Positions 3,199-9,702 of a DNA stretch of 64,000 bases are shown one piece after another. The stretch covers positions 160,001-224,000 of IMG/VR virus record IMGVR_UViG_3300042997_002652; one strand, 5' to 3'. A model generated the notes under the pieces. That model saw nothing but the letters and a program-made list of their open reading frames with translations, did not search any database and was not told the DNA's origin. The DNA comes from a virus (taxonomy: Duplodnaviria; Caudoviricetes). Within the stretch, counting starts at the first letter, position 1; every line of letters starts with the position of its first letter. A program made the translations under genes and the position numbers.

Positions 3199-3788
3199 CG
3201 TATAACAACCCTAGCTTTTTCATCAACGTAATCACTATAAGTTTTGTAACCATTTTTTCTAATCCAATCAACAACAATTTGAGGGTCAGTTTTAAATAAT
3301 TCCTTTACTCCGTCTATGTCTAATGCGGAATTAAATTCATAAATTTCATACGATCTTTGAGAGTTCATTCTGGCTCTAAGAATCATTTGATTTAATGGAA
3401 TAGGATTTGGTTTTGGACCGGCGTAGTTTTCTTCCTTTAAGATAGAAAAAATAGTTTCCTTTTCCCAGTTTTCAATTTCCTGTTTGGCGGCAGCAACATC
3501 ATAGATACATTCCAATCCTTCATTACACCACATTGCCAAAAAATGATGTGTTTTATTTTGTGAGTTCATATACCATTTCCGCTTTTTTATTAAATCATCA
3601 AGTGCTGGATTAGTTTCGGCAGCTTTTAGAATATCTTGCCAATCAGACCAACGACTAACCCACAGTGGATATTTGCTATGAACCAATGTACGCTCGGTAC
3701 TTCCTATAGTGCGGGCGTACACTGTGTGTCCCCTGTCAGGGGATTCAAATATTACCTCAGGCTGCTTGGGAGATTCTGTGGTCATCAT
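3195..3788 (-). CDS. Apparent fusion of two hypothetical genes (X: 3788 to ~3553; Y: 3569 to 3195) joined at an A6 run
   Basis: Likely start MMTTESPK at 3788; A_AAA_AAG at 3588-3582; -1 frame reads KKAEMVYELTK-stop (3553); internal ATG at 3569. Confidence 0.65.
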   Translation of the reverse strand: MMTTESPKQPEVIFESPDRGHTVYARTIGSTERTLVHSKYPLWVSRWSDWQDILKAAETNPALDDLIKKRKWYMNSQNKTHHFLAMWCNEGLECIYDVAAAKQEIENWEKETIFSILKEENYAGPKPNPIPLNQMILRARMNSQRSYEIYEFNSALDIDGVKELFKTDPQIVVDWIRKNGYKTYSDYVDEKARVVIR

Positions 3789-7905: not shown

Positions 7906-8991
7906 TTACTTTCTTAGTAGTGGAGGAATGCCAGCGCGTGATACTTTAAATCCAAAAGCTTTAGCGTTCTTTCTAAGTGTATCAGGTTTTATATCCACTG
8001 TCAAGGCTGTTTTAAACCTTGGATCATTTTTTTCTTTTTCACTTGGAATGTAACCTGATGCAGACTCATTTGTTTCGGCTTTAGCTAATCTATCATAGTA
8101 GTTAGGAAATTCTTTTAAATGATCTAACGCGATTTCTTTAGCTACTTGTTTATTGGTAGTATGTTCTAACTCAACTCGTATTCCTTTGTTCAATTGTTGT
8201 ATTAGTTGGTTAACAGGTACTGAATGCTTTTTTGCTAGTTCGTGTACTGTTAATGTGGGTTTGTCTAACTGATCAGCTTCTTCTATACTAAGAGACTTAC
8301 TATGTAGTTTATCTCTTAATGAGTATAATGCAGTAATGCCACCTTGTGTTCTTAATGCTTTATATGACAAGTTTTCAGGTGAAAATTCTCCACCTTTGTC
8401 TAATCCTGCTTGCCGATAGCGTTTTACTAAAGATATCGCATCATTTACTTTATCTAAGTCTTTTGATTTAAGTGTTAATTCTATTAGCTTAGCCAACTTT
8501 TCAAATTTAGCTTTAGTTTCTTTATGATCTAGATTAGCTTTGCTTTTCTTAGGAAAGTGTATCCATTCGTTATTCAATACACTATATTCGCCTAATGACC
8601 GCACTGGTTTCTTTACATCTTGTACATATAATTCTACAGGAACACCATGAACAGTAATATCATGAGAATCGTTATACAATGTTTTTTTAGCAGTAAAAAG
8701 TTCTTGATAAACTTCATCATTGGATAGATTGCTAAAATCAACTAAAATGTGTAAATCTAAATCAGAATGCGGTGTATAGCTAAATGCTGCGTTAGACCCC
8801 GATATCGTAATATCATCTACATCTAATTGACTAACACCAAGTTCTTGTAAGAAATCTTTTGCTATTACTATTAGTTGTTCTCTAACTTCTGGATCTAATT
8901 GGTCATCGTTCCAAAGAGCAGGGTTAAGTTCATCGTGAAACTTAACTGCATCTGATAGACTGAAATCTGTTAATTCTGTTATTAATACCAT
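7906..8991 (-). CDS. Pol-beta-superfamily nucleotidyltransferase with a C-terminal ELEHT domain (DUF5661-like)
   Basis: GSNA...SDLDLH plus later ELYVQD; C-terminal GIRVELEHT...IALDHLKE..NYY; likely start MVLITEL at 8991 because the ORF-track start lies in the terminator. Confidence 0.85.
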   Translation of the reverse strand: MVLITELTDFSLSDAVKFHDELNPALWNDDQLDPEVREQLIVIAKDFLQELGVSQLDVDDITISGSNAAFSYTPHSDLDLHILVDFSNLSNDEVYQELFTAKKTLYNDSHDITVHGVPVELYVQDVKKPVRSLGEYSVLNNEWIHFPKKSKANLDHKETKAKFEKLAKLIELTLKSKDLDKVNDAISLVKRYRQAGLDKGGEFSPENLSYKALRTQGGITALYSLRDKLHSKSLSIEEADQLDKPTLTVHELAKKHSVPVNQLIQQLNKGIRVELEHTTNKQVAKEIALDHLKEFPNYYDRLAKAETNESASGYIPSEKEKNDPRFKTALTVDIKPDTLRKNAKAFGFKVSRAGIPPLLRK

Positions 8992-8996
8992 ACTAC

Positions 8997-9002
8997 TATT
9001 TA
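8997..9002 (-). promoter_or_regulatory. Putative late promoter core (TAAATA), 5 nt before ATG
   Basis: CTAAATA-GTAGT-ATG(8991); no SD. Confidence 0.65.
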
Positions 9003-9010
9003 GTATAGAT

Positions 9011-9036
9011 AAAAAGAAAGGGAGCATAAAGCTCCC
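9011..9036 (-). terminator. Intrinsic terminator of the tmRNA transcript
   Basis: GGGAGC-TTTAT-GCTCCC hairpin followed by TTTCTTTTT. Confidence 0.88.
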
Positions 9037-9039
9037 CTC

Positions 9040-9375
9040 TTAGTTGTTTGATAACAAGGTAACCAGCCCCGTGAAGCTTACGCCGCTAGGCGAATATCTT
9101 CAAGTGCGAACTCATCGTTTGCGTTTACTTTTTTGCTTCTTTAACCGAGAAACTCCCAGTCCTTAAAGGTGTTCTGCGTTCACCTATTCTCCACATACCT
9201 TCAGTTGTTTGGCGAATCCAAATCATCCCCATCAAAAGAGTACTATAAAGAACTACCTAATCCCCTTTCAGTAATTTACCATCGCGGTCAACAGGCGGAA
9301 CGATGTAATACTCTTTTGGTGGAGATGCCGGGGTTCGAACCCGGGTACAAACTTCCTATCTCATGCTTCAACGAA
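9040..9375 (-). ncRNA. ssrA: tmRNA, circularly permuted two-piece gene: acceptor piece ~9375-9317 (ends CCA), 86-nt intervening segment 9316-9231, coding piece 9230 to ~9040
   Basis: T-arm CCGGG-TTCGAAC-CCCGG then CATCTCC-A-CCA upstream of GGGGATG (7/7 pairing, G3-U70); tag GCA(9122)...TAA(9078) = ANDEFALEDIRLAA; pk1-like element before the resume codon; outer ends approximate. Confidence 0.93.
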
Positions 9376-9529
9376 TTTCTTTTTTAGCAGCGTCATAAAA
9401 GCTGCTTGATGTTTTAGTATCAGCTTGTTTTATCAAGCATCTACCACAACAACTTCCAATTAGTTTTGCTAACTCAGGTTGTCTTTTGATATCTTGTTCT
9501 CTAATGTTATTACAGATACATAATATCAT
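9368..9529 (-). CDS. BFD-like [2Fe-2S]-binding small protein (53 aa, not in the ORF track)
   Basis: MILCICNNIREQDIKRQPELAKLIGSCCGRCLIK...: CxC...CxxC pattern; AAGGGAG SD. Confidence 0.75.
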   Translation of the reverse strand: MILCICNNIREQDIKRQPELAKLIGSCCGRCLIKQADTKTSSSFYDAAKKEIR

Positions 9530-9546
9530 AAAACTCCCTTATTATT

Positions 9547-9702
9547 CTATTTAGCTGGTTGAGAAGCCTCTAGAACTTCGTTAGAAGCTTCTACCCAAGC
9601 TTTGATAGTTTCATTTTCACTGATCTTATTACTGAAATTATCTACTACCCACTTGCATGTGTCAATACTTTTGGAGTGATATCCAGGTAAGTTAACAATC
9701 AT
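9547..9702 (-). CDS. Small hypothetical protein (51 aa, MIVNLPGYHSKSIDTCKW...)
   Basis: ATG 9702 overlaps the upstream TAA (TAATG). Confidence 0.65.
   Translation of the reverse strand: MIVNLPGYHSKSIDTCKWVVDNFSNKISENETIKAWVEASNEVLEASQPAK

Follow-up and report, generated by a model that had tools for sequence, protein, structure and literature searches.

Does a phage genome of uncultured origin encode its own two-piece transfer-messenger RNA (tmRNA), and would such an RNA be expected to work in the infected cell? The question is raised by a 64,000-nucleotide (nt) stretch of viral DNA, positions 160,001 to 224,000 of IMG/VR record IMGVR_UViG_3300042997_002652 (the window), in which a reading of the sequence alone had placed a circularly permuted tmRNA gene at 9040-9375. 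Present results show that the tmRNA gene at this locus is real, circularly permuted (two-piece) and of the betaproteobacterial (beta) type, and that it is kept in a clade of T4-like jumbo phages. Coordinates are positions in the window, and all parts of the tmRNA gene lie on its minus strand.

Identification of a permuted tmRNA gene

ARAGORN returned one gene only in the window, a permuted tmRNA (tmRNA*) at 8987-9409 on the minus strand with an intact tag, ANDEFALEDIRLAA, and the Rfam model RF04321 (tmRNA_permuted) matched 9078-9377 end to end (model positions 1-213) with 78.9 bits (E = 1.9e-13 for the 64-kb window), passing the curated gathering score of 47. From this E-value and the independent ARAGORN call, the match is far above chance. 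Both the program and the covariance model had been named by the sequence-only reading as ways of checking it, and both uphold it. Every feature that it listed was found on the minus strand where it had been placed; only its range was slightly too narrow, since the gene starts near 9377 (near 9413 according to the beta model) and ends near 9011.

The gene has the permuted order, with the T-arm, the acceptor 3' strand and the CCA (ending at 9317) upstream of the acceptor 5' strand (G1 = 9230) on the same strand (Table 1). As had been proposed, the acceptor strands GGGGAUG and CAUCUCC pair at 7/7 positions and include the alanine identity pair G3-U70, formed by G9228 opposite U9323. The T-arm has a 5-base-pair (bp) stem and a UUCGAAY-type T-loop, and the tag has an alanine resume codon, a hydrophobic LAA C-terminus and a stop codon, the sequence and ARAGORN agreeing on the frame predicted earlier. 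The terminator expected 3' of the tag is also present.

Table 1. Features of the tmRNA gene and of its surroundings (window positions).
Feature	Position	Strand	Basis or remark
Acceptor piece (encoded first)	9317-9377	-	RF04321 alignment, sequence, covariation in relatives
Helix-2 strands of acceptor piece	AAUUC 9377-9373; CAUG 9365-9362; GUUUG 9352-9348	-	
Junction UAC	9347-9345	-	Before T stem
U for conserved G of GAC junction before T stem (E. coli G333 equivalent)	9347	-	Comparison with 21 phage and 48 bacterial sequences
T stem CCGGG; T loop UUCGAAC; T stem CCCGG	9344-9340; 9339-9333; 9332-9328	-	
Acceptor 3' strand CAUCUCC	9327-9321	-	
Discriminator A; encoded CCA	9320; 9319-9317	-	
Intervening segment (spacer), 86 nt	9231-9316	-	Fold z-score, junction folds of relatives, open reading frame check
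Coding piece	9011-9230	-	Sequence, Rfam alignments, terminator prediction
Acceptor 5' strand GGGGAUG	9230-9224	-	
D-loop analogue	9223-9212	-	
C for conserved A, end of D-loop analogue (E. coli A20 equivalent)	9212	-	Comparison with 21 phage and 48 bacterial sequences
Helix 2a strand CAAAC	9211-9207	-	Pairs with GUUUG 9352-9348
Hairpin GGUG/CACC	9184-9168	-	Coding piece
Tag frame GCA...GCG GCG TAA, ANDEFALEDIRLAA-stop	9078-9122	-	ARAGORN; conserved in relatives
3' hairpin region, loop CCUUGUUAUCAAA at 9059-9047	9047-9071	-	RF01850 alignment, motif scan
Intrinsic terminator, 9-bp stem with 5 G-C pairs (9039-9017), then T run	9011-9039	-	
53-codon open reading frame, ribosome-binding site AAGGGAG, CxC...CCxxC	9368-9529	-	Upstream of tmRNA
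Sigma-70-like promoter candidate TTGACA-17-GATAAT (11/12), about 260 nt upstream	9637-9665	-	Consensus match only
Downstream gene	7906-8991	-	Start probably ATG 8991, not 9027

Conservation in a clade of jumbo phages

The gene had no blastn match among 50,697 deposited phage records and no exact 26-nt match in IMG/VR, and blastn with a more canonical relative gave only short matches, confined to the tRNA-like portion of tmRNAs from Stenotrophomonas and Xanthomonas phages. Relatives were reached through the downstream protein gene, which served as a handle to 80 related IMG/VR loci; a permuted tmRNA lies just upstream in 14 of the 80 by ARAGORN, and in about 19 when profile searches are included. 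Each of the ten related IMG/VR jumbo-phage records that were searched in full has a permuted tmRNA that exceeds the Rfam cut-off (90-129 bits), at varied genome positions; four of these contigs are estimated to be 100% or 95% complete and one 92%, and one is a 14-kb fragment only. The cultured Sinorhizobium phage Phosso also encodes a permuted tmRNA (113 bits), which is unannotated in its record, and none was found in Vibrio phage 2.275.O or Pseudomonas phage PA5oct. The permuted tmRNA is a lineage gene of this T4-like jumbo-phage clade, which is of freshwater type, and with ten of ten records positive it looks near universal there.

Twenty-two distinct phage-clade sequences were parsed, with pairing of the acceptor and T stems, but not of helix 2a, required by the selection filter. 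The parser also required ACCA, which every Rfam-located copy passed, and all 22 encode the full ACCA 3' end. G3-U70 is kept in 22/22, and acceptor pairs 4-6 and the T-stem pairs show compensatory substitutions across the set. Pairing in the first five pairs of helix 2a is 95.5%; when partners are exchanged among sequences it falls to 64%, and 0 of 2,000 shuffles reach the observed value. Thirteen distinct helices occur. The nearest relative, L066 (tag ANDNYYTEELRLAA), is 73.6% identical in both pieces, and where it differs from the present gene in stems (acceptor, T, helix 2a and first hairpin) the changes are compensatory. In a rough maximum-likelihood tree the two form a pair (100/95) inside a group that is phage-only save L121 and apart from the bacterial Rhodocyclales clade; branches are long and the deeper topology is unreliable.

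Contig L121 (CAKZLB010000006.1; 7.3 kb, 40% G+C), which is binned as Bacteroidetes, has a phage-clade-like permuted tmRNA with the tag ANDDTFALAA; it probably derives from a phage despite its bacterial bin. In L066, at least 14 tRNA genes form a cluster with the tmRNA at its end.

The phage record

The source record is 266,967 bp long, is estimated to be 76% complete and is labelled a provirus in IMG/VR; the tmRNA lies at 169 kb, in mid-contig. The same contig encodes a large terminase and a major capsid protein of T4 type (Gp23 family, 332 bits). Identity of the capsid is 72.6% to its Phosso counterpart and 68-70% to the capsids of Vibrio phage 2.275.O and Pseudomonas phage PA5oct. PHROG phage protein families occur on both sides of the tmRNA gene, G+C is even along the whole record (32-39%; about 36% for the contig), and the gene is syntenic in related viral contigs. 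Because capsid and terminase share its contig, phage families flank it, composition is even and synteny holds in viral contigs, the tmRNA gene is phage-borne, and is neither host flank nor an attachment-site fragment. It is the sole tRNA-like gene of the 266,967-bp record, in which no tRNA gene was found; a tyrosine integrase was not found there either.

The spacer and its closing stem

The sequence-only reading had described an 86-nt intervening segment closed by a perfect 10-bp stem, as expected for a precursor. That stem (9318-9309 with 9242-9233) is exact and is in fact longer, extending to 13 bp with one G-U (9318-9306 with 9245-9233) and stacking on the acceptor stem. For the precursor junction the folding energy is -36.4 kcal/mol (z = -4.84), with 0 of 200 shuffles as stable. 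No open reading frame longer than 7 codons was found in the spacer at 9231-9316.

Spacer length ranges from 5 to 342 nt among the 22 phage-clade sequences. Junction folds of 21 of them contain the acceptor stem, and where the spacer exceeds 9 nt most have a closing stem of differing sequence stacked on it, these stems starting at the CA of CCA and ending 2-3 nt before G1. Variable length combined with stacked closing stems of differing sequence is the pattern expected of an excised segment, and it fits the maturation model of the Caulobacter crescentus two-piece tmRNA, the experimental model for the mechanism, in which the loop between CCA and G1 is excised from one precursor to leave two paired RNAs (Keiler, Shapiro and Williams 2000, as cited in PMC9004378 and PMC11915505). 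The Caulobacter system is of the alphaproteobacterial (alpha) lineage and was shown by experiment; the phage gene is described here from its sequence.

tmRNA type and candidate hosts

The best clade-specific Rfam model is beta_tmRNA (RF01850), which gives 64.9 bits (E = 3.9e-19), below its curated gathering score of 84; 7 of 14 scanned relatives pass that score, with 91-137 bits. On these scores the gene is of beta type by descent and is not a member of RF01850 by the Rfam threshold. The hairpin that follows the tag agrees with this type, its loop CCUUGUUAUCAAA fitting the beta consensus CCUUGuuACcAAA of the RF01850 alignment. Most uncultured relatives are likewise best matched as beta type, several of them above the cut-off, and a minority, with Phosso, are of alpha type. 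The Phosso tmRNA (RF01849, 108 bits), which spans 603 nt, matches in type its alphaproteobacterial host, and from this one cultured case tmRNA type seems to follow host class. If this match holds, tmRNA type would be a possible host marker for uncultured jumbo phages, and the match would argue for a real fitness role of ribosome rescue in infection.

A degenerate scan for the loop motif in one genome per species (185,579 genomes) led mostly to Rhodocyclaceae/Azonexaceae (Dechloromonas, Azonexus, Sterolibacterium and others). ARAGORN found a tmRNA at 54 of the 80 motif-scan loci, nearly all permuted and with tags of the form ANDE[QHR]FA[IL]AA. These Rhodocyclaceae-type genomes have about 60% G+C, and the tree sets their tmRNAs apart from those of the phages. 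An order-level survey found strong permuted tmRNAs in 4 of 151 genomes. One locus, L183 (G079:C1:1212600-1222800), in a 1.96-Mb genome of the same order as Dechloromonas, encodes a beta-type two-piece tmRNA with the tag ANDENFALAA at a local G+C of 39.5%, and shares only about 48 nt with the phage gene. The beta-type two-piece tmRNA therefore occurs in low-G+C bacteria too, which are candidate host types.

Relation to known tmRNAs

The sequence-only reading had left open whether permuted phage ssrA genes were already catalogued. They are (PMC9004378, PMC11915505), and the kind is not new: 53 distinct two-piece forms, 50 of them aquatic, were reported among 402 tmRNA-bearing phages of 18,146 genomes (Buchholz 2022, PMC9004378), the 2025 tmRNA database holds 79 bacteriophage tmRNAs (PMC11915505), and phage-encoded tmRNAs, huge phages included, are in print (PMC7162821). 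Judged by the lack of a close nucleotide relative in the 50,697 phage records, the sequence itself is new; its clade-wide presence and the C/U variant described below are incremental additions.

Among the closest known systems is the betaproteobacterial two-piece tmRNA (RF01850; Sharkady and Williams 2004, as cited in PMC9004378), which provides the best clade model, has the same permuted order, shares the loop CCUUGUUAxCAAA, and has tags (ANDE[QHR]FA[IL]AA) resembling the phage core ANDE-FAL..AA. It differs from the phage gene in a tag of 10 residues rather than 14, in encoding only ACC followed by C or U in 45 of 48 bacterial genes, where the phage gene encodes the full CCA, and in spacers that mostly measure 25-29 nt after ACC (24-28 after the CCA position), compared with 86 nt and a 13-bp stem in the phage. 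The phage gene also has C and U at two positions invariant in the 48 bacterial genes, and resides on a contig of about 36% G+C.

The OM43 phage Melnitz and the pelagimyophages (PMC9004378) are likewise aquatic T4-like phages with a complete permuted ssrA and no smpB, and the same role, upkeep of the hijacked translation machinery, has been proposed for them. Their tmRNAs are of alpha type, unlike the beta type found here, and that of Melnitz contains a glutamine riboswitch in its 3' domain, whereas no riboswitch match was obtained in the present gene. The present gene also belongs to a different group, a jumbo-phage clade related by capsid to Phosso and PA5oct. Phosso, which with Sinorhizobium phage AP-J-162 is the nearest cultured relative by capsid, differs in turn by the alpha type of its permuted tmRNA; one tmRNA is reported for AP-J-162 (PMC11242549).

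An extended tag and two deviant nucleotides

The 14-residue tag exceeds the 10 residues found in most of the clade and in the bacterial beta type. It reads as a bacterial-like core (ANDE-FAL) followed by EDIRLAA, and shares its length and ending only with a small phage subgroup with the tag ANDNYYTEELRLAA, to which the ending E[ED][IL]RLAA is confined. The earlier description of a long non-standard tag holds in comparison with the beta type, but 14 residues lie within the normal tmRNA range and the ANDNYYTEELRLAA subgroup has the same length. The resume codon GCA (9122) is preceded by AAAAAAGUAAAC, and the tag frame and its upstream context are conserved across phage relatives, with synonymous changes.

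The most unusual feature of this copy is the one that the sequence-only reading had singled out, namely GGAUUCGC-C and GUAC in place of the usual forms. The nucleotide equivalent to C9212 is A in 21/21 other phage-clade and 48/48 bacterial beta-type sequences, and that equivalent to U9347 is G in 19/21 other phage and 48/48 bacterial sequences, making the combination of C for A and U for G unique among the 70 sequences compared (22 phage-clade, 48 bacterial beta-type). C9212 and U9347 face each other across the end of helix 2a, in flanks equivalent to E. coli G19-A20-C21 and G333-A334-C335, of which 4/6 nucleotides are kept; these positions are conserved, not strictly defining. G19-A20-C21 of E. 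coli has been treated as a predicted SmpB interaction site (PMC2584231, citing Hanawa-Suetsugu 2001), and the C/U pair at these predicted SmpB-contact nucleotides offers a cheap natural variant for probing their role.

Proposed function and alternative explanations

The gene quite probably encodes an ordinary two-piece tmRNA that would work with host factors (SmpB, alanyl-tRNA synthetase and ClpXP) in ribosome rescue during infection. On the basis of established tmRNA biology (reviews: PMC3022190, PMC8012679), the RNA is inferred to be processed and charged, to use host SmpB, to tag proteins for ClpXP and to benefit the phage in the following way. One precursor would be transcribed, comprising acceptor piece, spacer hairpin, coding piece and terminator, in which the spacer helix would stack on the acceptor stem. 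Host RNase P would cut 5' of G9230 and host 3'-processing enzymes would trim to the encoded CCA at 9317, so that the 86-nt spacer is lost and the two RNAs stay together through the 7-bp acceptor stem and helix 2. Host alanyl-tRNA synthetase would charge the RNA via G3-U70, and with host SmpB and EF-Tu it would enter ribosomes stalled on broken mRNAs. Translation would resume at GCA 9122 and add ANDEFALEDIRLAA, the LAA end of which would direct the product to ClpXP-type proteases. The phage could thereby keep ribosomes free while host mRNA is destroyed, a role proposed before for phage tmRNAs (PMC9004378, PMC7162821).

A host partner is implied since SmpB was found neither in this record nor in five relatives that are 92-100% complete. 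The sequence-only reading had suggested looking for smpB in the rest of the genome, and that negative result applies to a record that is 76% complete, which leaves some room for a phage SmpB. This is one of several points that weigh against a standard tmRNA serviced by the host. The copy has the lowest RF04321 score among scored relatives (84.8-144.9 bits in 11 related phage records and in L006, L024 and L035), C9212 and U9347 could weaken or alter SmpB binding, and neither the motif scan nor the order-level survey identified the host. Its own promoter is also uncertain. A T4-late-promoter-like TAAATA lies at a fixed distance, 63-78 nt before the acceptor 3' strand, in 16/22 relatives (for example L064, L070, L089 and L090), which suggests that most of the clade transcribes the tmRNA late; this motif was not found upstream of the gene in the window or of its nearest relative.

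The two deviant nucleotides and the extended E-D-I-R-LAA tag could alternatively mark a tmRNA with a retuned partner or outcome, which would be no plain spare of the host system. C9212/U9347 would then alter SmpB recognition, through a match to a divergent host SmpB, an unrecognised phage partner or competition with the host tmRNA, and the longer tag would mark products unlike host-tagged ones, possibly sending them to a different adaptor or protease route. The uniqueness of the pair among the 70 sequences and its position at the end of helix 2a would fit this interpretation, as would the standing of G19-A20-C21 as SmpB interaction site in PMC2584231, the restriction of the tag ending to a phage subgroup, and the inhibition of endogenous tmRNA in E. 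coli by the tag-less tmRNA-like RNA of mycobacteriophage DS6A (as cited in PMC11915505). It is nevertheless unlikely: G3-U70, the T-loop, the D-loop GG, the context of the resume codon, the LAA terminus and the terminator are all intact, the canonical A and G occur in the nearest relative, whose tag is of the same type, neither this record nor the five near-complete relatives yielded a candidate phage partner, and a single metagenomic sequence may represent a neutral or slightly harmful variant.

Somewhat less likely again is a decaying copy, inherited from tmRNA-bearing ancestors and losing its function here. Its low covariance-model score, the changes at two otherwise near-invariant nucleotides, the loss of the late-promoter-like motif of most relatives and the lack of tRNA genes in a 267-kb record would fit decay, but the tag frame is open, CCA is encoded, all helices pair fully, their differences from the nearest relative being compensatory, the terminator is intact, and the closing stem of the spacer has a perfection that random decay does not preserve. 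The provirus label, together with the common use of tmRNA genes as integration sites (PMC4383910, PMC9004378), would be accounted for if the locus were an integration-site remnant, either an ssrA fragment taken up by a temperate element or its phage attachment site (attP). This is highly improbable for a complete gene in mid-contig (169 kb of 267 kb) of a T4-like genome with even G+C and no tyrosine integrase found, whose relatives carry the gene at several different positions. An ordinary two-piece tmRNA used with host factors remains the preferred explanation of the locus.

Neighbouring genes and further observations in relatives

The 53-codon open reading frame upstream of the tmRNA overlaps it, its stop codon falling within the first helix strand, and has no family match in Pfam or NCBIfam. 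A likeness to a BFD-type 2Fe-2S motif was considered but is supported by no model of either database. The promoter candidate at 9637-9665 may drive this frame and the tmRNA as one transcript, and co-transcription followed by 5' processing is plausible from the arrangement; sites of this kind are no commoner in the region than in shuffles.

The downstream gene is preceded by a late-promoter-like CTAAATA and encodes a protein with an invariant Pol-beta nucleotidyltransferase motif (GS 65-66, DxD 77-79) and a conserved C-terminal DUF5661 domain. A structural model of this protein (mean predicted local distance difference test, pLDDT, 68) gave weak fold matches, nearly all to nucleotidyltransferases (CdnE, AadA/ANT(9), TENT5, MNT), with a best E of 2e-3. 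A functional link between this gene and the tmRNA was considered and is not supported: the two adjoin in about 19 of the 80 related loci but lie at least 90 kb apart in G001 and G007, two other large records in which both positions were compared, and the downstream gene has its own late-promoter-like motif.

Non-canonical T-loops occur in several related phage tmRNAs, with the sequences GGCGGUA/GGCAGUA (L006, L025, L030, L033, L064, L071) or UGCGAAU (L024, L035, L057, L070, L085, L086), and these are accompanied by altered D-loop analogues, AUAGGAUCGA or A(U/C)AG(U/A)(U/A)UCGA. This hints that the tertiary contact between D-loop and T-loop covaries in these RNAs.

The spacers of some relatives contain an open reading frame with a good AAGGAG ribosome-binding site, of 101 codons in L024 (spacer at 3428-3770), 68 in L091 and 32 in L086. 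In L093, a locus best matched as alpha type, the spacer (1568-1660) scores 46.8 bits with the Rfam model of the skipping-rope RNA motif (RF02924), against a cut-off of 36.7.

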